Below, piece by piece: positions 23,327 to 34,845 of a stretch of DNA of 41,425 nt. The stretch is from positions 1 through 41,425 of the forward strand of contig JAEOTC010000257.1 in assembly GCA_016840035.1 (NCBI GenBank). Direction: 5' to 3'. A program made the translations under genes and the position numbers. Numbering within the stretch: position 1 is the first letter of the stretch; each line of letters begins with the position of its first letter. The notes beneath the pieces were generated by a model. That model was not told the DNA's origin and made no database searches. It saw only the letters and a list, made by a program, of their open reading frames with translations. This stretch comes from Candidatus Hodarchaeota archaeon. GTDB lineage: Archaea; Asgardarchaeota; Heimdallarchaeia; Hodarchaeales; Hodarchaeaceae.

Positions 23327-25525
23327 TTATCCCTCATAGAGAAAAAGTTTGATTTCATCAACGAGCTTATTCAATGCTCTGTTTTCGTCTCTGGGGAGTA
23401 ATAATTCCTGAACATGGGGTTCGATCACATCATCAATACTTCGGGATTCAGCAACTTCATATTCATATTTGAGTTCCATTGGATCAATGATGAGCTCAAA
23501 GAGTTTCGCAACTTTTCCAGGTCGAGTTGCCCTTCCAACACGCTGTATTTGTTCACGTCGGTTTTTAGTTCCTGAAACAATAATGATTGTATCGGCTGGA
23601 GCATCAAATCCCTCATTTAACATTTTTACTAAAATAAGAGTGTTTATTTCTTTATGTCTAAACTTATCTAGGAGAATGTTAAACTCCTTATCATTTAATA
23701 CGGTTTCTCCTGTTAGTAAGGTGCTGTCAATTTTCCTTTCCTTTAGAAACTTGTGAAGCGCTTTTGCGTGGTTGATACGGCTTGTAAAAACAAGAGTTTG
23801 AGAGGTTAATGGAGATTCTAGTATTTTTTGAACGGCAAACATCTTGTATCTTGCTTCTCGGGAAACTTTCCCGTATGAGGATTTCCCTTTTTGGTTAATT
23901 ATTCCTTTCTCTTCCGAAGTGAGGGGAATGTGAATACGTTCGGAATAAATTGGTGCAATAAATCCTTCTCGAGCTAATAGTCCATAATTGATTTTATGAA
24001 TGATTGGGCCCATACAACTAACTACTAGACTTGAGTGTAATGTCTTTTCTATGGTAGCACTAAGCGCCATACGTCTTGGTATCTCTAAATCGACTGCTAT
24101 ATGACGAAAGGTCTCTGCTTGAATGTGGTGTGATTCATCAGCTATCAATAAGCCAAATTTATCGGTAAAGAAACCAATTGTATCTTTAACTAAAATCTTA
24201 TCACGAGATACTTTCTCAAGTTCCTTCTTCTTTAAGGCATGGAAGTCCTGTAAGTATTGCGCAAGCAATTGAAAAGTAGAGATAACAATCTGATACTGTC
24301 TAAAAGCTTTTTTCTGACCAGTAAAGATTCCAATTTCTGCAGGTTTTACACCAATGAATGTTCCAATTTGATCTATCCATTGGTCAACTAATGCAAGATT
24401 AGGAACTAATATCAATGTTCTCTGTTGAATCTGACGTATCGCATCAATGCCAATGATGGTTTTACCTGCCCCAGTTGGCAATTGAATTGTTCCAAATTCC
24501 TGATTTTCAAACCATTTGTCAATTCCTGTTTGCTGATAAGACCGCAATTCATAATTATGTTGCATTTCTGTTTTCCATATTTTTTTGCTTGGGGTAGGTG
24601 TAAATGGAGTAAATTTAAGTTCAAATAATGATTGACTCTTCGAGTCATTGATACTTTTCTCAACCATTCGCCAAAAATGATTAGCTCGGAAAGCGGCCCA
24701 ATAAGCTACTTCAATTTCTCGTTCTCCGACCTGAGTAATACAATGTAAATAATCTGCATTAGGATCATCTTCTGATCGTATGGCCATATATCGGGTGAAA
24801 ATATCAAACAAAGTGTGAAACCACGTATTAAATGCTTTATTCCATTTTATTCTCAATTTATCATCAGTCGATTCAACAGTAATTGAGTATTCCTGTTGTC
24901 CTGTCTCGGAAAGCGCGTCTAGTTTTTCTTTCACACCAGGACTATACTTTATTGTGATCCCTGTTTTCTGTAAAAGCTTTATATCTTCTTGAACTAGGTG
25001 AGGAAACTGAAGAATGAATTTCGTGGGACGATGAGTTCGCTTGTGTTCCCAATAACCATTATGCTTGCGCCAGTTCCTCTCCCAGATTCGAAATTGCTCA
25101 CCAACCCAAGGGAAGTAGAAAAATTTTCTGTCATATTCCTCCGAATCTTCCTCTTTCTTAAGATATTCGAAATAACCCTCCACATTTAAACTACGGGAGC
25201 GTTCCTTTTTGTAGTGAGAACGTCGAATCGGGATCCAAGCATTAATCTGTGTAAAAGGATACCAGGGGAAATCCACTAGGAAACTTAGGTCTTCTTGGAT
25301 AGTAATCTGGAATCCATTTTGTTGTGCAGTAATAAAGTTTACCCATGCGTCTTCAGTAATCGAAGCACCTTTCATTCGAGGACTTTGTTTTCCTCTTAAA
25401 CCGAGACTGGGAGAAGAACAAACGTGAGTCCTAATTTTATGGCGACATAAAGGTGCTGAACACTTACTACAGCGGTAAATTTTTGCACCTGCTTCTGCGC
25501 ATTCATTACAAATTTCTAAGCTAAT
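23327..25525 (-). CDS. XPB/Rad25-like SF2 DExH helicase with long N-terminal region and N-terminal zinc finger
   Basis: LRSYQ, LPTGAGKT, DESHH, SAT, MLNEGFD and QRVGRATR. The frame stays open for 50 codons upstream of ATG 25375 and encodes a Cys/His cluster; proposed start is ATT 25525. Confidence 0.85.
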   Translation of the reverse strand: MSLEICNECAEAGAKIYRCSKCSAPLCRHKIRTHVCSSPSLGLRGKQSPRMKGASITEDAWVNFITAQQNGFQITIQEDLSFLVDFPWYPFTQINAWIPIRRSHYKKERSRSLNVEGYFEYLKKEEDSEEYDRKFFYFPWVGEQFRIWERNWRKHNGYWEHKRTHRPTKFILQFPHLVQEDIKLLQKTGITIKYSPGVKEKLDALSETGQQEYSITVESTDDKLRIKWNKAFNTWFHTLFDIFTRYMAIRSEDDPNADYLHCITQVGEREIEVAYWAAFRANHFWRMVEKSINDSKSQSLFELKFTPFTPTPSKKIWKTEMQHNYELRSYQQTGIDKWFENQEFGTIQLPTGAGKTIIGIDAIRQIQQRTLILVPNLALVDQWIDQIGTFIGVKPAEIGIFTGQKKAFRQYQIVISTFQLLAQYLQDFHALKKKELEKVSRDKILVKDTIGFFTDKFGLLIADESHHIQAETFRHIAVDLEIPRRMALSATIEKTLHSSLVVSCMGPIIHKINYGLLAREGFIAPIYSERIHIPLTSEEKGIINQKGKSSYGKVSREARYKMFAVQKILESPLTSQTLVFTSRINHAKALHKFLKERKIDSTLLTGETVLNDKEFNILLDKFRHKEINTLILVKMLNEGFDAPADTIIIVSGTKNRREQIQRVGRATRPGKVAKLFELIIDPMELKYEYEVAESRSIDDVIEPHVQELLLPRDENRALNKLVDEIKLFLYEG

Positions 25526-25751: not shown

Positions 25752-27986
25752 TTATTTTGGAAAGGTTAGCGTAAACCGTGTTCCATGCCCTTTTCCGTCG
25801 CTATGAGCTATTATCGATCCACCATGAGAACTCATTATTTCTCTTGAAAGGTAGAGGCCAATTCCTGTTCCTTGAGTTGAGTATTCAGTTTCAATTGTCA
25901 CAAATTGGTCAAAAACTCTCTCAAGATCTCCAGAATCAATCCCTGCTCCATTATCAATAACATCAACTTCAATAGCCGTCAAAGTATTTCTAATTTCAAC
26001 CCTGATTTTCCTGCTGTCTTTCGAGCTGTTTTTAATTGCATTATCAATTATATTATCAATTACTTGTTGAATTCGATCACTGTCTATGTCATAACTAATT
26101 ACAGCGTCCTCTTCAAAGTTAATAAATTCAAATTCAAATTGTTCTTCTAATAGGTCTTCGTAAGGTGCAAGTATTTTAAGCATGTGTTCTTTAAAATCAA
26201 TAGTTCGTAAATTGATTTGAAAGAGACCTCTTTCTAATTGAGTAATCGCTTGACTATCTGAAATTAGGCGTTCAAGTCGATTTAGATTCTTATTAATGAT
26301 TGAAAAAATATCCGTTTTCTGCGTTTCGGTCATCATTTCTAGTTTTTTCTGCAAAAATTCATTGTATCCAAACAAGACAGTTAATGGTGTTCTCAATTCA
26401 TGATTAACCATTCTGATAAAATTATCCCGTCTTTTCTGTAATTCCGTTCTGATCTGTTCTGCTTTTTTTCGTTCTTCTACGTTCCTAAATATTCCTATAT
26501 GATATTTATTATCTTCCAATGTTACGGGTGAGACATTGATATCTGCATGGAAAATTGTTCCATCTTTCTTTCTTAAGGGGATTTCTGAAGCGAAAGATAG
26601 ATTTTGTTGGTTGATTTCTGCCATTTCTTCTTCAAAATTTCTATAGATTTGATCTTGGCGAAGATGAGAGAGGGATAAATGCATTACTTCTTCTTGTGAA
26701 TATCCAAACATTTCACAAAAAGAATGGTTTGCGAGAAATATTTCTCCATCCTTTGGATTTACAAGTATTATTCCATCTGTGACGTTGTCAAAAATCGTTT
26801 TAAATCGTTTTTCTGATTCTCTCAACTCTTTCTCTGTCATTTTGAGTTCTGTAATATCGAGAACAGATACCGTTGATTTAGCAGATACACCTTGTTCGAT
26901 ATCCCAATTTGCTCTTACTAATGCCCAAAGTTTCCTTCCAGATTTTGTTACAATCTGATATTCAACGGTTTCTTCGATTTCCTCATTTGAGAAGAGTTTG
27001 GCTGATCTTTCAAGCCAAGTTTCTTTACTTTCCTCAGTTAACATCTCATAGAGGTTGAGATTTCCTGCTTCCTCTGCTGTTACTTCAAATAACTCAAGGA
27101 GAAGATCATTTGCGAACAGGACCTTCGTTTCACCAGTAGGAAAATCTAATTCGATTTCATAAATCCCCGTTGGTGCTTTTTTGACTAGTTCGCGATATCT
27201 TTGTTCACTTTCTCGTAGAGCATTTTCAATTTCCTTAATATCGGATATGTCAAGAATTACACCACGAAGACCAACTCGTTCATTATCCTTGATTATCGAA
27301 TTGGAATATATTAGCACTGGGAACGATTTTCCATCTTTATGAATAGCTGTATATTCATGATCTTCAAATAACTCCCCCTTCAGTATTTTACGAATATTTT
27401 TTCCAATTCGAGCTAAATCTTCAGGAATGAAAAGCTTAGAGACATTTAAACCTCTTTTCAATTCTTCTAATGTGTAACCAAAGGTTTCTAAGCCTTTAGG
27501 ATTCGCATAAATTATGTTTCCTTTCGTGTCCAGCTCAAAAACAGTCTGGGGTAGTAGCTCAGCAAGATCTTTGATACTTCGTTCACCTTCTTCAAGATGG
27601 TATCTAAGCTGCGCATCAAGTGATTTTGAGTGAAGAAATTGACGGTAACAGCCATATACTCCCAACAATGCCCCAACAAGGAAGAAGATTAAATCAACGT
27701 CTTTAAGTAAGTCATCAGTTCCAATCTCCATTCCATTCGGAGTGAATGACCTTAGAAAGTCTTGAAAAACATCAAAAAATACTGGTATCACTAGTAGAAT
27801 AACTGCAACAAAAAACCATGGACCTGCTCCTTCATAAAACAGCCGATTTCTTCTCATGCCGTAATAAATAATAAATATTAGAGCTAAAAGGAGAAAAAAT
27901 ATCGCAGACTCGAAGAAAAAGTCAAGATAATCTAAGGAATCTAAAAAATATTTCGAGGACACATTAAAGTTGACCATTCTTGGCAA
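25752..27986 (-). CDS. Membrane-anchored PAS-domain sensor histidine kinase
   Basis: Three N-terminal TM segments, three PAS/PAC units, H-box NHELRTPL, N-box DNIIDNAIK, DNGAGI and GTGIGL. Confidence 0.94.
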   Translation of the reverse strand: MPRMVNFNVSSKYFLDSLDYLDFFFESAIFFLLLALIFIIYYGMRRNRLFYEGAGPWFFVAVILLVIPVFFDVFQDFLRSFTPNGMEIGTDDLLKDVDLIFFLVGALLGVYGCYRQFLHSKSLDAQLRYHLEEGERSIKDLAELLPQTVFELDTKGNIIYANPKGLETFGYTLEELKRGLNVSKLFIPEDLARIGKNIRKILKGELFEDHEYTAIHKDGKSFPVLIYSNSIIKDNERVGLRGVILDISDIKEIENALRESEQRYRELVKKAPTGIYEIELDFPTGETKVLFANDLLLELFEVTAEEAGNLNLYEMLTEESKETWLERSAKLFSNEEIEETVEYQIVTKSGRKLWALVRANWDIEQGVSAKSTVSVLDITELKMTEKELRESEKRFKTIFDNVTDGIILVNPKDGEIFLANHSFCEMFGYSQEEVMHLSLSHLRQDQIYRNFEEEMAEINQQNLSFASEIPLRKKDGTIFHADINVSPVTLEDNKYHIGIFRNVEERKKAEQIRTELQKRRDNFIRMVNHELRTPLTVLFGYNEFLQKKLEMMTETQKTDIFSIINKNLNRLERLISDSQAITQLERGLFQINLRTIDFKEHMLKILAPYEDLLEEQFEFEFINFEEDAVISYDIDSDRIQQVIDNIIDNAIKNSSKDSRKIRVEIRNTLTAIEVDVIDNGAGIDSGDLERVFDQFVTIETEYSTQGTGIGLYLSREIMSSHGGSIIAHSDGKGHGTRFTLTFPK

Positions 27987-28125: not shown

Positions 28126-29094
28126 TTAATCAGATTGAAGTTGGGAACCACAGGTTTCACAGAAATAATCATCTCTCAGAACCATTTCACCGCATTGGTC
28201 ACAATAGCGAAGGAAATCATTGATTTGAACATCAGGAACAGTTAAAAATTGTTCCAAGGAAGATTGTGCTTTTTCTCCAGCTCTTCTTCTAACTACAGCC
28301 ATGTCAATCGTTTCCAACTTTTTGAGAGGTTGTTTTAGAAGAATAGCCAGTTGACGTGCATTGGATGGGGCAGATCCGGCGGGGTGATTATTAAAATAGG
28401 TAAATATTTCCCTGGTCTGATCTTTTAGTGCCTCAATTTTGTCTTTCCATGTAAGTAACTCCTTCCGCGAGTATAAATAGCGATACCATATCTTCAAACC
28501 ATGACCATGTAAACGAATGTATGAAAAATCAGCTGTAACGGGGGTAATCGGGGGTAACAGTGGTTCATCCACGATACAAAACGCTACGTTATATTTGGAA
28601 AGTAAATTTACTGTTTGATCTAAATGCTTCACCCATGATCGTTCTCTAAACTCTACAGCTAATTTTAGTTCTGATGGCCAATGTTTAAGAAATACTGCGA
28701 GTGCTTGTCGGTTTTCGTCAGAGAATTTGGGTGGTAATTGAAGGAGAGCGGGACCTAATTTTTTCCTTAGTCCGCTGGTCATTGTGTTTAGGAATCGTTC
28801 AAGATCAGTGTGAAAATCTATCAGTTTTTTCTCATGTGTAATTAGTTTGGGGATCTTGAATGCAAAAAGAAAGTTTTCTGGGACATGCTTTTCCCAACGC
28901 CGCACCACCCCGAGTCGTGGAAAATGATAAAAGCTTGTGTTAATCTCTACCGTCGGAAAAACTTCACTATACCATGCAAGTCGTTGTTGTTCTGTTAGTA
29001 TCGAAGGATAAAAAGCGATTTTCGTTTTCTCGTTCCTTGCCTGCCAATCTGAATATCCAAACCCTGAAGTTCCAAGCAATATTTTGGCAGTCAT
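28126..29094 (-). CDS. DUF72 (YecE-like) TIM-barrel protein with PIP-like motif and C-terminal zinc ribbon
   Basis: GTSGFGYSDW, TVEINTSFY, FKIPKLITH, LLQLPP, VEFR, YIRLHG and YFNN, then QSSLEQFL and CDQC-x10-CETC. Confidence 0.92.
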   Translation of the reverse strand: MTAKILLGTSGFGYSDWQARNEKTKIAFYPSILTEQQRLAWYSEVFPTVEINTSFYHFPRLGVVRRWEKHVPENFLFAFKIPKLITHEKKLIDFHTDLERFLNTMTSGLRKKLGPALLQLPPKFSDENRQALAVFLKHWPSELKLAVEFRERSWVKHLDQTVNLLSKYNVAFCIVDEPLLPPITPVTADFSYIRLHGHGLKIWYRYLYSRKELLTWKDKIEALKDQTREIFTYFNNHPAGSAPSNARQLAILLKQPLKKLETIDMAVVRRRAGEKAQSSLEQFLTVPDVQINDFLRYCDQCGEMVLRDDYFCETCGSQLQSD

Positions 29095-29217
29095 TCACTT
29101 TATTCTCCTTTTGTTTATTCACTGTAGTTGTACCTAGTTCATATCTTGTCTACTTTCTTCTGGTCGGATCCCGTCAGATTTTGTCATTCGCTTTGAGGTG
29201 AAAGAGTGAACCTGAAA

Positions 29218-30003
29218 CTATCTTTTTCGTCTATTCTGTACAAATATTATGGTAGCTATGGACAATGTGAGTCCCAGTGTGTCTATAGGCGTTATATTCG
29301 GGTTTGTACTCGGTTCAGAATCAGTTGGAATTGAACTGTCTGTTTTCGTTGTGGTTGTTGAGGACTCCAACTGAGTTGTGTCTATCGATGGATTGAGGGA
29401 AACTTGATAGGCAATTCCCGCAAATCGATGGAGTAGTACTGAATATTCCCCTGCTGACTCATTTTCATAATGCCAAAATGCTATATCAATAGTATCGGAT
29501 AATTGAAGACCTAAATCCGCTAATAGGAAATAATATTCCACGGTACTATTTGTCGTAATATCAATCGCCACAGAATTTTGATAGTCAACATATTCGTGAT
29601 TTGTTTTATCATTAAGAAAACTCGATAAATTTCTACCTGGAAATATTGCTGAAAACGACCAAAAGGGGTGCGATTCATAAACAATTTGGTACATTAATAT
29701 GTAGACCTCATTAGATGGGGTACGGATTGTAATATTTCCTAATAAGGAATCCCAGTAGTCAAGTGGAGCTGCATAGTCAAGACGAATAAACAAAGTAGTC
29801 TCATTGGCTGCTACAAACCCTTTTTGAATATCTACCCAGTATTCCGGATGTATCTCATCGTCAACAAAGACGGGTGCTATTCCTTCCCAATCTGTAAAGT
29901 CACCATCTATATTGATTGTTACTCCACCACCCATACTTGGAAAAACTACGCTAATAACGATTAGAAGTAGTAATCCCAGAATTAAACTCCTTTGCTTTGT
30001 CAT
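29218..30003 (-). CDS. Secreted surface protein (DOMON/CBM9-like 'IDG..DW' domain) with Thr/Ser stalk and C-terminal anchor
   Basis: Signal peptide, INIDGDFTDWEGI, LFIRLD, T/S-rich linker, TM and RRKR. Confidence 0.7.
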   Translation of the reverse strand: MTKQRSLILGLLLLIVISVVFPSMGGGVTINIDGDFTDWEGIAPVFVDDEIHPEYWVDIQKGFVAANETTLFIRLDYAAPLDYWDSLLGNITIRTPSNEVYILMYQIVYESHPFWSFSAIFPGRNLSSFLNDKTNHEYVDYQNSVAIDITTNSTVEYYFLLADLGLQLSDTIDIAFWHYENESAGEYSVLLHRFAGIAYQVSLNPSIDTTQLESSTTTTKTDSSIPTDSEPSTNPNITPIDTLGLTLSIATIIFVQNRRKR

Positions 30004-30093
30004 GAATTTTCCTCCTGTCTTTCTACAGTATTCTGGTTAAAAAAGATTTAGATGACAGACCGACTTCACAATACATAGTACTGATTCCTCTCC

Positions 30094-30294
30094 TCAGCTC
30101 GTATTTTGAGCATGAAAGATTGACCCTGATACTGTTAATGCAAGACCAACTAGGCCATATACTATAACAGTAGCTAGCTCACGAACTTCAATAGGATCCA
30201 ATTGTGTAGAGTCTGCCCCAATTCTATTCGCAGCAAAAAGGGCAAATAGAAAGAAAAAAGCTCCAAGTATCCAACAAACTGTTTCTTTAATCAT
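30094..30294 (-). CDS. Small two-TM membrane protein
   Basis: Two hydrophobic helices; ATG 30294 preceded by GGTGAG (ORF extends to 30330). Confidence 0.55.
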   Translation of the reverse strand: MIKETVCWILGAFFFLFALFAANRIGADSTQLDPIEVRELATVIVYGLVGLALTVSGSIFHAQNTS

Positions 30295-30382
30295 AATTTT
30301 CTCACCAAGTGTGTTCACGACTTTCACCATCTTGTACCTTATTAAGCTTGATTTGACGGAACGTTGGTTTTACCAAAACAGC

Positions 30383-30400
30383 CATTTTCATCATTTTCAC
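30383..30400 (+). promoter_or_regulatory. Tandem ATTTTC (ANTTTC-type) boxes upstream of the PolB2 operon
   Basis: CATTTTCAT-CATTTTCAC, with hexamers at 30384-30389 and 30393-30398. Function is inferred by analogy only. Confidence 0.35.
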
Positions 30401-30461
30401 TGAAGTCTCAGACTCAGTATCATAGTCATTAGCACAGAGTGGTACAAGTAATTTGAGACAA

Positions 30462-31259
30462 ATGAGTACTGATACTAGTCCGTGGTCCTCGGCGTGGGAA
30501 TTGAAACAGAGGCCAAGATACAAATCAGGAGTGCTTGCAATAGATGCACTGATACCTGATGGAATGGTACAGGGTAGTTTAATCTTGATACAAGGTGATG
30601 TGGGCCGGAAATTACTCCGACATTTAGTAACAAAGCTCACCATAGGGCTTTTGACGATGAATAATCCATCAGAATTAGCTTTTATTGATGGAGAAAACAT
30701 CTTTCCTTATTATGACATATCATCAGAAGCACGAAGAAATGGATATGATCCGTTGACGATTCTCGACCGTATTCAATTATCTCGGGCTTTTAATTTTCAT
30801 CAGCTAACGGAAATTATTACTAAAAGACTTCCCAATCTCCTGGAAGTAAAGAAACAGTTGAAAATCGTTTTTGTACCGCAGATTTCATCACTCTACCTTT
30901 CTACGGAAGCATTAGAGTATTTAGAATATGCAAATCTGTCTCCAGCAGAGGGAGCATTAACGGAGCTAACGCAGGCAGTTGGTACTTTAAAGAGTCTGGC
31001 GTTACAAAATAATTTGGTGGTCATTATGACGGCGGCTAGCGCCACAGGATCGAAAACTAAAGGCTTGGGAGGAACGTACTTGACTCATTCGGCATCTTCG
31101 GTTATCAGAATGGCCTCCTCGGCTGAAAGCTCGGCTAAGGAGTTTGATCTTCATTTTTCATTACAAAAGGATCCAGCCCGACCTGCAATCCAATTGACAC
31201 ATTCACATCGGCGAAAAAAACCTGTTAATAGTCAAACATCACTTAATCGTTATTGGTGA
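30462..31259 (+). CDS. Inactivated RadA/RecA-like protein (iRadA, ImuA-analogous)
   Basis: RecA-fold landmarks SGVLAIDALIPDG, FIDGEN, IQLSRAFNFHQL and GGTYLTH. Walker A is degenerate (GDVGRKLL, no GKT) and Walker B lacks Asp. Confidence 0.85.
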   Translation: MSTDTSPWSSAWELKQRPRYKSGVLAIDALIPDGMVQGSLILIQGDVGRKLLRHLVTKLTIGLLTMNNPSELAFIDGENIFPYYDISSEARRNGYDPLTILDRIQLSRAFNFHQLTEIITKRLPNLLEVKKQLKIVFVPQISSLYLSTEALEYLEYANLSPAEGALTELTQAVGTLKSLALQNNLVVIMTAASATGSKTKGLGGTYLTHSASSVIRMASSAESSAKEFDLHFSLQKDPARPAIQLTHSHRRKKPVNSQTSLNRYW

Positions 31260-31263
31260 GAAC

Positions 31264-31530
31264 ATGGGACGTACATTACCCTCCTATCGAATGGTATTAG
31301 AGCATGAACGAGACCTTTGGATAAAGCATTTTGCTAAGCGGTTACGAGAACCATATCGTACCAGTTTTGACTATCTCTGGGAGAAGGCCTTTCAATTGGC
31401 AGATGCTGCTTCGGCAAACACACGACCAGTAGCATTAGATAACATTCTTATGAGTATGGTAGTGGCTCAACAAGCAGAAATTCAGCGGTTACAGAAAGAT
31501 CTTAGTACATTGCGAAAACAAATTGATTGA
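31264..31530 (+). CDS. Small PolB2-associated protein (arCOG07300/PPB2-like)
   Basis: Characteristic N-terminus MGRTLPSYR, helical body and coiled-coil C-terminus; lies between iRadA and PolB2. Confidence 0.8.
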   Translation: MGRTLPSYRMVLEHERDLWIKHFAKRLREPYRTSFDYLWEKAFQLADAASANTRPVALDNILMSMVVAQQAEIQRLQKDLSTLRKQID

Positions 31531-31540
31531 CTGGATAGTT

Positions 31541-33766
31541 ATGGTGACCCGACGTGCTTGGTTACATGATGTAGCGGCAACGGAATGGGGGGTAAATACA
31601 TATTGGATTACTTCAAAAGGGGGAATTAAAGCATTTTATCCGATGACGGTTGAGTTTTTCCTTGCGAAAACTGATCTGGAAACACAAAAACGTGTTCTAA
31701 GTCACCCCGAAGTCGAGGCAGTCGAAGAAGTCTCAAAATTTGTATCAATTCACGATTGGCAAGCCAGTCCAGTTCTCCGTGTGCGAGTCAATCCAACTAA
31801 GATACGGACAACCTTTGAGGATCTCCGTAAATACTGGGACAAGTACCTCTATAATGCAGATCTCAGTATTTATCAACAGTTTAGTTTCCAGACGGGACTA
31901 TTTCCATATGTGTATGCGAAAATTGAAGTGAAAAACGGACGATTACAAAAAAATTGGGAGCTCCTTGAGCACTATCTCCAAGCGGACTATCGAACAGTTC
32001 CCTTTCGTACCCTCTGGATGCAACCATTCTTTGAGGAACAGAATTTCTCACGAGGACAGATCCAGGAAATCCATATGCGTCAGTCGCTCAGTCAAGAAGA
32101 AGAACCAATTGTCTTTATCGAGGATACGGAAGCAGAGACAATTCGTGAGAGCATGATGTACCTCAACAAAATTGACCCTGATATCCTCTTTACATCAGGT
32201 GGGGACACTTTTCTACCGATCATTGCCCAGCGGGCCACCGATCTGGGAATTGGATACATTCATCCTGGCCGAGGGAGACGCAAACTCTATAGCTATGTCA
32301 AAAAACAGACCAAACCACGAGGACATAGTTATATGTCATACGGGAGAGTATATTTTTCACAGTATGGGGTTTATTTAGATGGCGGGAGGCATCATTACGA
32401 TGTAGGTAATTCCTTTATGTGGAAGGAAGGAGCTATCGATGGTATTCATGAACTTGTTCGATTAGGGTGCTCTGATCCACAACGAGTTGCAAGAGCAACA
32501 ATTGGAACCGCATTAACTGCTGTACAAATGCGAACGGCATATCGACGGAATATTCTGATTCCCGCTAGAAAAGCCGATAGTGAAGATTTTCGGCCCGCAT
32601 GGTCGATGATGAGTGATGTAGGAGGACTAGTGTTTTCTCCTCAAGTGGGTTTCCATCAAAACCTTGTAGAACTTGATTTTCTGTCTATGTACCCATCGAT
32701 AATGACGTATAGAAACGTAAGCCCTGATACAGTCAATTGTGGCTGTTGTAAACACGATCAGCAACAGCTTGTTCCTGGAACGGGTCATTATATTTGTACC
32801 CAACGCCCAGGTTTAGTTAGTTTAGCTTTGAAGAATATCCTCGATAGGAGGGCTTATTTCAAAAGTAAAAGAGATGTAGAATCGTATGATCGGCGTCAAA
32901 AAGTTCTTAAATGGCTACTTGTCACGAGTTTTGGCTACCAAGGGTACAGGAACTCCCGTTTTGGTCGTATCGAGGCACATGAGGCGATTTCTGCCTATGG
33001 CCGAGAAGCGTTAACTCGTACCAATCAAGTTGCTACTGAATTTGGGCTTGAAGTGGTTGCTGGGATTGTAGACTCGATTTGGTTAAAAAATCCTGATAAT
33101 ACTCCTATTGAACAATCAATTGTTGATAAAATCTGCCAAAAAATTCAAGATGAAGTCAAACTTCCCATCGAACATGCCGCTAACTATCATTGGATTGTTT
33201 TTCTTTCTAGACGTCATGAACCTACTATCGGAGTTCTTAATAGGTATTATGGCTTAAAAACTAATGGGTCTTATAAAATTCGCGGTATTGAGATACGTCA
33301 ATCCAGTAGTCCTCTATTTGTGAAGAAGCTCCAACGCCAACTGTTGAAGATTCTATCTGTAGCTCGTACTCCTGAGGAATTCAAAGAGTGTGCGCATAAA
33401 GCGAAGCGAGTCATGCGACGACATTTGATGGATTTGAAGGCAGGGAATATTCCATTGAGTGATCTTCTTGTGACAATTCGACCTTCACGCGGGCCTGACG
33501 AGTATGTGAGTAATACACGACAAGCTATTGCTTCTCGTCAATTAGCCAAAGCTGGAGTGAAGGTGGAAGCTGGTGTTAAACTTAGCTATCTTATTCTGGA
33601 TGCATATGCGTCTGATCCAACAGAGCGTGTCAAAGTCACTCAGCTCTTAACAGGTAAAGAGCAGTATGACTATCCGGAATATCGTAAACTGTGTATTCGC
33701 GCTTATGAGGGACTCATTCCCCCCGAATTAGAACAAAGGAAATTGACAATTGAAGAGTATCTCTGA
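31541..33766 (+). CDS. polB2: Family B DNA polymerase, group 2 (PolB2/Dpo2)
   Basis: Motif A ELDFLSMYPSIM, motif B RQKVLKWLLVTSFGY, RFGRIEAHEAI, altered motif C GIVDSIW (instead of YGDTDS), NRYYG and KIRGIEIR. No recognisable Exo I DxE motif. Alternative TTG start at 31523. Confidence 0.92.
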   Translation: MVTRRAWLHDVAATEWGVNTYWITSKGGIKAFYPMTVEFFLAKTDLETQKRVLSHPEVEAVEEVSKFVSIHDWQASPVLRVRVNPTKIRTTFEDLRKYWDKYLYNADLSIYQQFSFQTGLFPYVYAKIEVKNGRLQKNWELLEHYLQADYRTVPFRTLWMQPFFEEQNFSRGQIQEIHMRQSLSQEEEPIVFIEDTEAETIRESMMYLNKIDPDILFTSGGDTFLPIIAQRATDLGIGYIHPGRGRRKLYSYVKKQTKPRGHSYMSYGRVYFSQYGVYLDGGRHHYDVGNSFMWKEGAIDGIHELVRLGCSDPQRVARATIGTALTAVQMRTAYRRNILIPARKADSEDFRPAWSMMSDVGGLVFSPQVGFHQNLVELDFLSMYPSIMTYRNVSPDTVNCGCCKHDQQQLVPGTGHYICTQRPGLVSLALKNILDRRAYFKSKRDVESYDRRQKVLKWLLVTSFGYQGYRNSRFGRIEAHEAISAYGREALTRTNQVATEFGLEVVAGIVDSIWLKNPDNTPIEQSIVDKICQKIQDEVKLPIEHAANYHWIVFLSRRHEPTIGVLNRYYGLKTNGSYKIRGIEIRQSSSPLFVKKLQRQLLKILSVARTPEEFKECAHKAKRVMRRHLMDLKAGNIPLSDLLVTIRPSRGPDEYVSNTRQAIASRQLAKAGVKVEAGVKLSYLILDAYASDPTERVKVTQLLTGKEQYDYPEYRKLCIRAYEGLIPPELEQRKLTIEEYL

Positions 33767-33828: not shown

Positions 33829-34845
33829 ATGAAACCGTCACTATCTCAATTCCAAGGATGTCTCATTGGACAGTGTTTAGGGGATGCCTTAGGGTTTCCT
33901 GTTGAAGGATATGGACCTGAATCATGTTCAACGTATGTAGAGGAAAATATTCGTCATCCCTCTGATAAAATATTAGGACGTGCCCATTACCCCTTTGGCC
34001 AGTATACGGATGACTCTCAGTTAGCAAGAGACCTTATTCGAAGCTATAATGAAAATGATGGACAATTTCGACCAGAAGATTATGCAAGGCGTATTGCAAC
34101 TATATTTGAAGAAAATCGGATTGTAGGAAGAGGATTAGCAACCCATCAAGCTGCAGAGAATTTGATAGCAGGAGCTTCATGGGAGGAGTCAGGTATTCCT
34201 CCGCCTAGTGCAGGGAATGGAAGTGCAATGCGAGCGGCTCCGGTTGGAATGTTTTTCTTTGATAATCCAAAACTTCTTACCAAGTGTGCTATTGATCAAG
34301 GTCGAATTACTCATACTGATCCTCGTTGTCATGCGGGAGCAGTGGCTATTGCTGGAGCTGTGGCTCTAGTATTATGTGAAGATGAAATAATTCCCTCAAA
34401 CTTCCTCACTGCATTGATAGACTATGTAAGACCAATTGACCCCACTTTGACTCAAGGGCTAGAAAAGCTTCACATTTGGTTGGATTGGGATTACAAGGAA
34501 GCGGTAAAAGTCGTAGGTCCATTTGGCCGAAAAGCGGGGTATGATGAGAGTTATTCCTGGAGGTATATATCACCTTATGTCATTAGTAGTGTTCTATGGA
34601 GCATTTATGCTTTTTTAAAAACCCCAGAATCATATATGGAAGCAATAATCACGTCTATAATAATTGGAGGAGATGTAGATACTACTGCGGCAATGACAGG
34701 TGCCATTAGTGGTGCATTTCTAGGAATAAAAGAAATTCCTCAAGAATGGGCTTCTCTGTTAACTGATCAAAATTCATGGGGTTATGAAGAACTCATGGAA
34801 ATAGCTACTAGCTGTTATAACATCAAAATGAGCGAAAATCGTTAA
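33829..34845 (+). CDS. ADP-ribosylglycohydrolase (DraG/ARH family)
   Basis: GDALG..VE, YTDDSQL, GNGSAMRAAP, THTD and GGDVDTTAAMTGAISGA; metal ligands intact. Confidence 0.93.
   Translation: MKPSLSQFQGCLIGQCLGDALGFPVEGYGPESCSTYVEENIRHPSDKILGRAHYPFGQYTDDSQLARDLIRSYNENDGQFRPEDYARRIATIFEENRIVGRGLATHQAAENLIAGASWEESGIPPPSAGNGSAMRAAPVGMFFFDNPKLLTKCAIDQGRITHTDPRCHAGAVAIAGAVALVLCEDEIIPSNFLTALIDYVRPIDPTLTQGLEKLHIWLDWDYKEAVKVVGPFGRKAGYDESYSWRYISPYVISSVLWSIYAFLKTPESYMEAIITSIIIGGDVDTTAAMTGAISGAFLGIKEIPQEWASLLTDQNSWGYEELMEIATSCYNIKMSENR

Follow-up and report, generated by a model that had tools for sequence, protein, structure and literature searches.

The window, the whole stretch of 41,425 nucleotides that was analyzed, comes from an Asgard archaeon of the Hodarchaeales and contains on its plus strand three closely packed genes encoding iRadA, PPB2 (arCOG07300) and PolB2, with a gap of 4 nt between the first two and an overlap of 8 nt between the last two. 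A gene for a DUF72-family protein with a C-terminal zinc ribbon is divergent from iRadA at a distance of 1.36 kb, with two small minus-strand ORFs in between. A preliminary description, made from the sequence, had already reported a tight operon and a divergent DUF72 gene 1.4 kb away; this layout was recovered, and all four genes are located and identified as it stated. The features are listed in Table 1.

Table 1. Genes, motifs and promoter element of the PolB2/DUF72 region (positions refer to the window).
Feature	Position	Strand	Length and remarks
XPB/Rad25-like SF2 helicase	23327..25519	-	N-terminal Cys/His finger
PAS histidine kinase	25752..27986	-	between DUF72 and helicase; Pfam PAS, HisKA, HATPase_c
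DUF72-family TIM-barrel enzyme	28126..29094	-	322 aa; C-terminal linker and zinc ribbon
C4 zinc ribbon CxxC-x10-CxxC	28150..28203	-	DUF72 residues 298-315
PIP-box-like QSSLEQFL	28243..28266	-	linker, DUF72 residues 277-284
Two small ORFs	29218..30330	-	of 261 and 78 aa; not confidently assigned to any family
Tandem CATTTTC-N2-CATTTTC	30383..30398	+	ANTTTC type; ~70 nt upstream of iRadA ATG
iRadA	30453..31259	+	268 aa from TTG; ATPase-dead RadA/Rad51 core
PIP box QTSLNRYW	31233..31256	+	canonical; last 8 residues of iRadA
PPB2 (arCOG07300)	31264..31530	+	88 aa; starts MGRTLPSYR
PolB2	31523..33766	+	747 aa; family-B polymerase, motif C IVD, decayed exonuclease domain
PolB2 motif A LDFLSMYPS	32672-32698	+	
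PolB2 motif C GIVDS	33062-33076	+	
PIP-like tail KLTIEEYL	33740..33763	+	Q-less; last 8 residues of PolB2

iRadA is matched by Pfam Rad51 (1.5e-7) and by NCBIfam RadA (2.7e-9, below the cut-off of that model); the ATG at 30462 is a likelier start than the TTG. Its Walker A motif is degenerate (GDVGRKLL, residues 48-55), in agreement with the earlier view that a functional one is lacking. PPB2 has the N-terminal MGRT and the residues Arg3 and Arg9 by which this family is defined (PMC11791011), and its orthologues share 59-92% identity. PolB2 is matched by NCBIfam PRK05761.1-4 (type-B polymerase, 3e-105) and Pfam DNA_pol_B (7e-27). Its exonuclease domain (exo1) is decayed and matched at 1e-4 only; the preliminary description had found the proofreading motifs unrecognizable. 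Because the gene matches and the PPB2 orthologues fit the defining features in PMC11791011, the plus-strand genes represent an ordinary copy of the PolB2 mutasome operon already published for archaea.

A PIP-type motif closes both iRadA and PolB2. For iRadA, 12 of the 14 genus orthologues have Qxx[LI]xx[YF]W at the very C-terminus or one residue away from it; a C-terminal motif of this class has already been described (PMC11791011). The PolB2 tail is x-x-T-[LI]-[ED]-x-[YF]-[LFW] in 10 of 12 genus orthologues (genomes G001/G017 have K or N instead of T), and more distant Asgard PolB2 proteins bear [ST]Lxx[FY] tails. Chance occurrence was estimated from the 3018 ORFs of at least 150 aa of this genome, where Qxx[LIMV]xx[FYW][FYWLIM] was sought in the last 12 residues. 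Only five had such a C-terminus: iRadA, a PolB, a second DUF72 paralog, a 300-aa ORF and one probable chance match. The Q-less form of the PolB2 type is found at 290 of the 3018 C-termini, so that the PolB2 motif has no significance by itself, and the case for it is its conservation. Another PolB of the same genome ends in IIPLTEFFA, which also is Q-less.

The tandem element upstream of iRadA occurs once in the 4.3 Mb genome, and 13 of the 14 orthologous iRadA upstream regions have TCATTTTC between -78 and -67. In Sulfolobus, ANTTTC serves as the damage-response element of Orc1-2 (PMC6061795). As judged from the sequence, the PolB2 operon probably lies behind a damage-responsive promoter. A conserved ANTTTC was not found when the upstream regions of DUF72 orthologues were compared. 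The element is thus conserved for iRadA only, which does not support the co-regulation of DUF72 with PolB2 that had been considered in the preliminary description.

The DUF72 protein is matched by Pfam PF01904 (5e-68), and in its AF2 model (pLDDT 83.9) the barrel comprises residues 1-252. QSSLEQFL is modeled as a short helix, followed directly by a stretch with pLDDT <50 (residues 285-291), and is thus predicted to be located in a flexible linker between TIM barrel and zinc ribbon, 13 residues before CxxC-x10-CxxC. All four zinc-ribbon cysteines are invariant in alignment A3 (Pfam Zn_Ribbon_1 matches at 7e-4, below cut-off). The combination of DUF72 and zinc ribbon was encountered only in Hodarchaeales-type sequences among the homologues listed and 80 archaeal loci. 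The motif is conserved as Q-x-S-L-x-x-F-[LMIF] in 18 of 18 genus orthologues, and L280 is invariant among 33 homologues; in a metagenomic subclade of zinc-ribbon DUF72 proteins, R replaces Q at position 1. The preliminary description had placed all three motifs exactly, and all are kept in orthologues. Its common pattern Qxx[LIM]xx[FY][FYW] fails for QSSLEQFL because the final residue (position 8) is L, but the motif itself is present. No clamp motif on the DUF72 family was reported in the literature searched. This motif would be the new part; the mutasome, the PCNA motifs of iRadA and PolB2, and the enrichment of DUF72 near polB2 are known (PMC11791011).

Motifs of clamp-binding type recur across the DUF72 family. 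A canonical PIP box, [KR]xQxxLx[ED]F[FL], terminates the second DUF72 paralog in 18 of the 19 genus genomes, the remaining one having H for Q. Qxx-h-xx-aromatic ends 22 of 78 other complete archaeal DUF72 proteins, compared to 6 of 879 neighboring ORFs; about 15 more of the 78 have Q-less PIP-like ends, and 33 have a SWIM-like finger in place of a PIP tail. Bacterial DUF72 proteins end in the beta-clamp motif Q..[LM][FW] (QLSLF type) in 70 of 112 cases, and this motif ends 5 of the 3018 background ORFs and none of the archaeal set (0/119). A PIP end was found in none of the 112 bacterial proteins, and many of them (~245 aa) have no tail. This comparison argues strongly for the DUF72 motif being a clamp-binding motif. 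DUF72 proteins generally appear to be clients of the sliding clamp, which they would contact through a PIP box in archaea and through a QLSLF-type motif in bacteria, and such a conserved docking motif across both domains points to a role of the family in DNA repair.

Only one PCNA gene was found, so that a homotrimer with three equal pockets is expected. When PCNA (residues 1-256) was folded with DUF72 residues 258-322, an ipSAE of 0.55 was obtained (runs 0.55, 0.57, 0.54), with 0.00 for the best of three controls, at least 65% of contacts in common between runs, and a partner pLDDT of at least 57. Of 80 solved complexes, 58 pass the mark applied, as do 2 of 110 mismatched pairs; scores up to 0.60 among those passing belong to only 7 of the 80 solved complexes and to both passing mismatches. 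The fold, which the preliminary description had suggested as a check, thus weakly favors PCNA binding by the DUF72 tail, and the pass may reflect memory because PIP-PCNA complexes have already been solved. The DUF72 model aligns with 1vpy (VIA Z 26.8) and 1vpq (VIA Z 25.7). EndoIV (5zhz) aligns with Z 13.5 (rmsd 3.5, 216 aligned), in a tie with MbnB and epimerases (Z 12-15), and neither EndoIV nor UVDE is among the Foldseek top 50. The fold search thus does not distinguish between nuclease and sugar isomerase.

In 12 genus genomes, the DUF72-Zn gene and iRadA share a contig and are divergent, with DUF72-Zn on the upstream side at a distance of 0.3-10 kb. In G016, 736 kb separate it from the operon, and DUF72 and PolB2 are also unlinked in members of the class that lie outside the genus. 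The linkage of DUF72 to PolB2 in relatives, to which the preliminary description attached weight, is thus loose; since genus relatives are not independent, synteny within the genus may reflect nothing more than inheritance. Of 80 archaeal loci, 10 have a PolB2 operon adjoining DUF72, and one such arrangement, in Bathyarchaeia, is tight and divergent. Two intervening elements are outside the system. The 261-aa and 78-aa ORFs are matched in G004 only, with no match in G014 and G020, whose loci have 0.33-0.5 kb between DUF72 and iRadA, and the PAS histidine kinase, found beside DUF72 only in G000, G004, G014 and G020 among the loci compared, is an insertion in the subclade of this genome. The XPB-like helicase (ResIII 1e-26; Helicase_C; NCBIfam XPB 1.2e-50, below cut-off) is the next gene downstream of DUF72-Zn, in the same orientation, in 15 other loci and is, within the genus, a tighter and steadier neighbor of this gene than the PolB2 operon. 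Ahead of the ATG at 25375, its reading frame stays open for ~48 codons, which are conserved as well.

We consider it fairly probable that the published PolB2 mutasome docks on PCNA and that DUF72 is a clamp-tethered repair enzyme beside the mutasome, not one of its subunits. The PolB2 complex would most likely dock on homotrimeric PCNA via the C-terminal PIP box of iRadA, with the Q-less PolB2 tail as a probable additional contact. DUF72, with its own PIP box in the flexible linker and the lineage-specific zinc ribbon behind it, would most likely be a metal-dependent DNA-repair enzyme acting on clamp-loaded DNA, for which we infer an EndoIV/UVDE-like incision activity. It would act alongside the mutasome and, in the genus, probably with the adjacent XPB-like helicase. 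The preliminary description went further and had iRadA, PolB2 and DUF72 fill the three pockets of one PCNA trimer together, as a single tool-belt for lesion processing and extension. This is consistent with conserved PIP-type motifs on all three proteins, with the expected homotrimer, with the divergent gene arrangement in the genus and in Bathyarchaeia, and with the joint absence of PolB2, iRadA and DUF72-Zn from G002, G007 and G011. We nevertheless regard it as unlikely: PIP-tailed DUF72 proteins occur in many genomes where no PolB2 was found (e.g., the second paralog in G002 and G011), DUF72 is unlinked in G016 and has no promoter element in common with the operon, and the published model is a closed heteropentamer without DUF72 (PMC11791011).

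Alternatively, the DUF72 motif could be a structural element of the linker, or a dock for another partner such as the adjacent XPB-like helicase, in the way Bax1 docks on XPB. This would fit its internal position, the aliphatic residue at position 8, the constancy of the helicase as a neighbor and the weak outcome of the PCNA fold. However, other archaeal DUF72 proteins, with no such helicase nearby, have a free C-terminal canonical PIP box at the same position, and bacterial ones carry a beta-clamp motif in the same place. This switch is hard to explain except by the clamp, which makes such a reading rather improbable. Even less probable is a metabolic role for DUF72 as a TIM barrel of the sugar isomerase/epimerase type, close to PolB2 by inherited gene order without function. 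Such enzymes score equal to EndoIV in fold searches, linkage in one genus is weak evidence, and the variable spacing (0.3 to 10 kb) includes unrelated inserted genes. A DNA-associated role is much likelier, though, given that each domain of life has its own type of clamp-binding tail, and DUF72 genes are found again next to PolB2 operons in a distant phylum, with three tail architectures; its enrichment near polB2 was reported independently (PMC11791011).

The proposed clamp-tethered DUF72 and the mutasome beside it can be compared to several known systems. The PolB2 mutasome operon of archaea and bacteria was described by Makarova et al. (2014; PMC4104785), and the iRadA-PPB2-PolB2 mutasome, with PCNA motifs at iRadA or PolB2 C-termini, by Timinskas, Timinskas and Venclovas (2025; PMC11791011), who predicted in silico that PolB2 assembles with one dead RadA and a PPB2 trimer. 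Gene order, tight packing, the replaced first Asp of DxD, the decayed exonuclease, the ATPase-dead RadA, the MGRT arm of PPB2, the C-terminal PCNA motif of iRadA and a nearby DUF72 gene are common to both. Here, however, iRadA and PolB2 both have conserved PIP-type tails, which is rare in PMC11791011, and DUF72 has a PIP box and a zinc ribbon, of which that study makes no mention. Sulfolobus Dpo2/PolB2, which is damage-inducible and extends synthesis past lesions and mismatches (PMC8764526), belongs to the same polymerase group and likewise has a conserved upstream ANTTTC-type element (Orc1-2; PMC6061795), but the element described here is tandem, ~70 nt from the ATG, and in an Asgard archaeon rather than a crenarchaeon. 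The likening of the extender role to Pol zeta stems from the Dpo2 work (PMC8764526); the mutasome and Pol zeta reading of the preliminary description thus fits the literature but is not novel, being preceded by PMC11791011 and PMC8764526. DUF72/YecE proteins (PF01904; 1VPQ, 1VPY, 1ZTV) were predicted in silico to be EndoIV-like repair nucleases (Konc et al. 2013, PMC3828134). The TIM barrel is shared, whereas the PIP-box linker and the C4 zinc ribbon are additions here. Clamp-tethered repair nucleases with terminal PIP boxes include FEN1, archaeal XPF, NucS/EndoMS and RNase HII, and eukaryotic Pol eta, ZRANB3 and Spartan combine PIP and zinc-finger modules. DUF72, as a putative DNA enzyme with a short Qxx-h-xx-aromatic motif in a flexible tail next to a small zinc module, resembles these, but its catalytic fold is unrelated and its zinc ribbon belongs to a generic C4 type. 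E. coli Pol V (UmuD'2C-RecA) and ImuA-ImuB-DnaE2 are similar in outline, combining an error-prone polymerase, a RecA-family protein and a small subunit on a sliding clamp. They differ in their polymerase families and small subunits, and in PolB2 complexes it is usually the recombinase homolog that bears the clamp motif.

The window carries genes for iRadA (an ATPase-dead RadA), PPB2 (arCOG07300) and PolB2, which are adjacent and co-oriented on the forward strand, with a 4-nt gap followed by an 8-nt overlap. A DUF72 gene is divergent from iRadA, 1.36 kb apart. Two small ORFs lie between them; these were matched only in G004, another genome of the genus, and not in the closer-spaced loci of G014 and G020. 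The four genes of the preliminary description are real, and both their boundaries and the positions of the three PIP-like (PCNA-binding) motifs were reproduced exactly. The genome (4.3 Mb, 293 contigs, 87% complete) is referred to as G000, and close homologs of its DUF72 protein carry the names Hodarchaeales or Candidatus Hodarchaeum.

Features of the window discussed in the text
Feature	Position	Strand	Basis or remark
XPB/Rad25-like SF2 helicase	23327-25375	-	
Open frame upstream of the first helicase ATG	25376-25519	-	~48 codons
DUF72 with C-terminal zinc ribbon	28126-29094	-	Pfam PF01904 at 5e-68
Tandem element upstream of iRadA	30383-30398		
iRadA, 268 aa	30453-31259	+	Rad51 at 1.5e-7 over residues 25-215; Walker A reads GDVGRKLL
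PPB2, 88 aa, start MGRTLPSYR	31264-31530	+	N-terminal MGRT arm, Arg3/Arg9
PolB2	31523-33766	+	NCBIfam at 3e-105
ADP-ribosylglycohydrolase	33829-34845	+	2e-64; starts 63 nt past PolB2

PolB2, iRadA and a PPB2 trimer have been predicted to form a heteropentamer, the "PolB2 mutasome" (Timinskas, Timinskas and Venclovas 2025, PMC11791011). In that study, PPB2 is helical, and its "MGRT" arm, with Arg3 and Arg9, is predicted to insert near the active site. At the sequence level, all of the defining features that could be checked are present in the window. The genes are adjacent as an operon. PolB2 retains the motif A Asp, while the first Asp of the motif C DxD is substituted (GIVDS, residues 514-518), and the exonuclease domain has decayed and is barely recognizable (Pfam exo1 match only 1e-4). 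iRadA has a RadA/Rad51 core devoid of the ATPase residues and of the N-terminal helical domain. PPB2 is small (about 90 aa are expected) and has the arm with both arginines. The same study describes a conserved D(K/R) loop of PolB2, for which a simple string search returned no DK or DR in residues 151-420.

The same study reports PCNA-binding motifs more often at the C-terminus of iRadA than at that of PolB2, and rarely at both. It also found DUF72 and SRAP genes "enriched to some degree" near polB2. Dpo2 is known as a damage-inducible extender polymerase (PMC8764526, PMC6061795). Thus, the operon, the mutasome analogy, the clamp motifs of iRadA and PolB2 and the DUF72 neighborhood are not new, and the operon itself is one more Asgard member of a published system. 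The interpretation in the preliminary description is partly supported and had largely been published; its new part is the DUF72 motif. In the open literature, we found no paper linking DUF72, YecE or COG1801 to PCNA or another clamp. The new findings are that DUF72 has a conserved clamp motif, that such motifs are general in both archaea and bacteria, and that a helicase gene neighbors DUF72.

Some PolB2 orthologs in the genus, those of G008 (L014:2893-4392), G006, G009, G013 and G015, are interrupted in polymerase motif B, after KWLLVT, by an intein of about 500-540 aa (LAGLIDADG, 5e-17; intein splicing domain, 1.5e-9), which PolB2 of the window does not have. A weak DNA_pol_B match (4e-8) was also seen in G000 (C117:5960-6466, locus L175), inside a very long ORF (about 2020 aa). 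The ADP-ribosylglycohydrolase gene downstream of PolB2 was rejected as a conserved partner, since of the loci compared, G004 alone shares this neighbor.

Orthologs were compared across the GTDB genus (21 genomes), and the chance background for C-terminal PIP boxes was taken from the 3018 ORFs of at least 150 aa in G000, using the pattern Qxx[LIMV]xx[FYW][FYWLIM]. Only 5 of the 3018 end in this way: iRadA, a PolB (QVNLMEFFS), the second DUF72 paralog (QMTLKEFFS), a 300-aa ORF and one probable chance hit. The 300-aa ORF (contig C111, reverse strand) ends with QTDLLSYFPE and has no family assigned. The iRadA tail of the window is a canonical PIP box, and Qxx[LI]xx[YF]W is found at the C-terminus, or one residue from it, in 12 of 14 genus orthologs. 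The PolB2 tail lacks the Q and follows x-x-T-[LI]-[ED]-x-[YF]-[LFW] in 10 of 12 orthologs, the two others (G001 and G017) being close variants with K or N at the T position; more distant Asgard PolB2 proteins have similar [ST]Lxx[FY] tails. Since Q-less endings are common by chance (290 of the 3018 C-termini), the case for the PolB2 tail is based on its conservation. It is supported by another PolB of G000, which also ends without Q (IIPLTEFFA). To check the local PIP consensus, FEN1 was first considered as a positive control, but no XPG_N match was found in G000 (87% complete), and the PolB tails were used in its place. With conserved tails on both iRadA and PolB2, this lineage belongs to the rare class having clamp-type tails on both proteins.

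In DUF72, Q-x-S-L-x-x-F-[LMIF] occurs in 18 of 18 genus orthologs. In the window, the motif (QSSLEQFL, with L at position 8) sits in a low-pLDDT linker. According to the AF2 model (pLDDT 83.9), the barrel extends to residue 252 and the zinc ribbon makes up a small module of its own; the motif forms a short helix, with residues of pLDDT below 50 (285-291) directly after it. The second DUF72 paralog of the genus (about 285 aa, 30% identical) lacks the ribbon and ends with [KR]xQxxLx[ED]F[FL] in 18 of 19 genomes; the remaining one has H in place of Q. In a metagenomic subclade of zinc-ribbon DUF72 proteins (P0004-P0007, P0010 and P0011; 71-80% identical), Arg replaces Gln at position 1 (RSSLDEYF, RASLEDFI), and L and the aromatic residues are retained.

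Beyond the genus, 78 complete archaeal DUF72 loci (Bathyarchaeia, Nitrososphaeria, Asgard) were analyzed. Qxx-h-xx-aromatic endings are found in 22 of the 78, the form QxTLx in 7, the Nitrososphaerales form GEGS[IM]LE[FY]V in 12, other Q-less endings in 3 and the zinc-ribbon form in 2; 33 of the 78 have a SWIM-like zinc finger instead. Among the 879 other ORFs of the same loci, six have a Q-type ending, one of them being iRadA. The SWIM-type proteins (e.g. L064, L096, L112 and L123) have about 390 aa, with a C-terminal finger (HDCADW...CKH) replacing the PIP tail, and some of them adjoin PolB2 operons. Bacterial DUF72 proteins, named sources being Anaerolineae, Gemmatimonadaceae, Udaeobacter and Blastocatellia, end with Q..[LM][FW] in 70 of 112 cases (e.g. 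QLSLF, QMTLF, QPSLF, QRELF), compared to 5 of the 3018 background ORFs and none of an archaeal set of 119. None of the 112 has a PIP box. That the clamp tails differ between archaea and bacteria would be difficult to account for if DUF72 did not work on clamp-loaded DNA.

The DUF72 tail (residues 258-322) was folded with PCNA (residues 1-256), both entered as alignments, along with three controls. The ipSAE was 0.55 (0.55, 0.57 and 0.54 in the individual runs; best control 0.00), at least 65% of the contacts were in common between runs and the partner pLDDT was at least 57. Of 80 solved complexes, 58 reach the mark used, as do 2 of 110 mismatched pairs; scores of 0.60 or below, as here, account for only 7 of the 80 complexes and for both mismatches that passed. 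The support is weak. PIP-PCNA complexes have already been solved, and the score may thus only reflect likeness to these. Five lines of evidence favor a clamp motif on DUF72 (its position, the second paralog, the other archaea, the bacteria and the fold), and we consider it probable that DUF72 of the window binds PCNA.

The chemistry of DUF72 could be that of a nuclease or of an isomerase, and the fold does not decide between them. The protein is a member of PF01904, and its barrel (xylose-isomerase-like TIM group) aligns to 1vpy with Z 26.8 (rmsd 2.1, 230 aligned residues; VIA). Endonuclease IV structures align as well (5zhz with Z 13.5, rmsd 3.5, 216 aligned; 3aam with Z 12.3), as does the ASFV AP endonuclease (Z 13.3), and sugar epimerases and MbnB score alike in VIA. 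No EndoIV or UVDE is among the Foldseek top 50. A possible incision activity is suggested by the clamp tails, the repair neighbors and an earlier in silico prediction of a repair nuclease-type function (PMC3828134).

In 12 genus genomes, the zinc-ribbon DUF72 gene and iRadA share a contig and are divergent, with DUF72 upstream, at distances of 0.33, 0.5, 1.4, 1.5, 2.8, 3.3, 4.8, 5.4, 7.4, 8.5, 9.7 and 9.8 kb. The two are 736 kb apart in G016, and in G013 DUF72 is not within 6 kb of iRadA. PolB2, iRadA and zinc-ribbon DUF72 are missing together from G002, G007 and G011, and G005 (74% complete) has DUF72 only. As these genomes are close kin, linkage within the genus is weak evidence. Outside of it, the operon lies within 10 kb of DUF72 in 10 of 80 archaeal loci. 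Bathyarchaeia have a tight divergent arrangement, with iRadA-PPB2-PolB2 pointing one way and a tandem DUF72 pair the other way; the second DUF72 has a PIP tail or a SWIM finger. The paired genes overlap translationally (L104:9079-10810, L112:8063-10175), the one on the operon side being the second; the first is a divergent DUF72 (7e-27) and has no tail. The pair of L104 is followed by a metallo-beta-lactamase/RMMBL gene encoded on the opposite strand. The link is thus seen again with three tail architectures and in two phyla, which agrees with the enrichment reported previously. DUF72 can partly be assigned to the PolB2 system.

Several observations speak against DUF72 and the mutasome forming one machine, namely the helicase neighbor, the kinase insertion and a promoter element conserved at iRadA alone. 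The most constant neighbor of zinc-ribbon DUF72 is the XPB/Rad25-like SF2 helicase; in 15 other loci, among them that of G016, its gene is directly downstream of DUF72 in the same orientation. In the subclade of the window, a PAS histidine kinase gene is inserted between the two. A conserved "intergenic" stretch upstream of the helicase was considered as a promoter and rejected, being coding sequence: the open frame upstream of the first ATG encodes a conserved CxxC-x10-CxxC-x4-CxH-x4-HxC finger, and changes between orthologs are mostly synonymous. Since this stretch has no ATG, GTG or TTG in G000, it may be asked whether the helicase has an unusual start codon. The helicase C-terminus (conserved IK[LI]xFY) was rejected as a PIP box because its residues are spaced differently.

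Upstream regions of 14 iRadA and 15 DUF72 orthologs were aligned. A conserved TCATTTTC precedes iRadA, and only iRadA, in 13 of the 14; it matches the ANTTTC Orc1-2 element of Sulfolobus (PMC6061795). The tandem form seen in the window occurs once in G000, and single copies (720 genome-wide) are too common to define a regulon. No conserved copy of an ANTTTC-type element was found upstream of the 15 DUF72 genes, and more distant DUF72 orthologs have an A-rich TTTAAAT box. Shared regulation of DUF72 and the operon, a point raised in the preliminary description, was therefore abandoned.

In the reading that is supported best, and judging from the motifs and the published models, PCNA would recruit the mutasome to stalled primer ends via the iRadA tail, and probably via the PolB2 tail as well. 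DUF72 would be a separate PCNA client and a putative incision enzyme. In eukaryotic damage tolerance, modules that combine a PIP box with a zinc finger read the modified clamp or DNA. It is tempting to speculate, even if we regard it as rather unlikely in its full extent, that DUF72 (YecE, COG1801) is an unrecognized family of clamp-tethered DNA-lesion-processing enzymes in both prokaryotic domains. In archaea, it might be the excision/incision partner of the PolB2 mutasome on PCNA, coupling lesion processing and error-prone extension on one clamp, and the Hodarchaeales zinc ribbon beside the PIP box could read the modified clamp or DNA.

The value of these observations lies in DUF72, a very large family without a tested function (matches to 10,502 representative clusters at E <=0.001), which moves from a "domain of unknown function" to a directly testable repair-enzyme hypothesis. 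The clamp-tail reading also gives a rationale for the reported enrichment of DUF72 beside translesion PolB2 operons. The compact Asgard damage-tolerance neighborhood, with a two-clamp-tail mutasome, a clamp-tagged zinc-module enzyme and an XPB-like helicase, is relevant to the origin of eukaryotic PCNA-centered tolerance.

The preliminary description placed iRadA, PolB2 and DUF72 simultaneously on one PCNA ring as a tool-belt. In the Sulfolobus-type tool-belt, distinct PCNA subunits each have their own client. Here, a single PCNA gene was found in G000 (87% complete), with one match in 19 of the 20 genus genomes having a match and two in none, which differs from Sulfolobus and would give a homotrimer. 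Such a homotrimer could still hold three clients, and simultaneous loading may be possible. PCNA of the genus (L142:2260-2361, G000:C167) has a strongly acidic C-terminal tail of about 30 residues, D/E-rich with W or Y; its character is conserved genus-wide, and it is absent from the 251-aa PCNA of distant relatives. The switch of the DUF72 motif with the host clamp, a PIP box in archaea and the QLSLF type in bacteria, resembles that of iRadA, for which the same argument of a host-clamp-dependent motif was used (PMC11791011).
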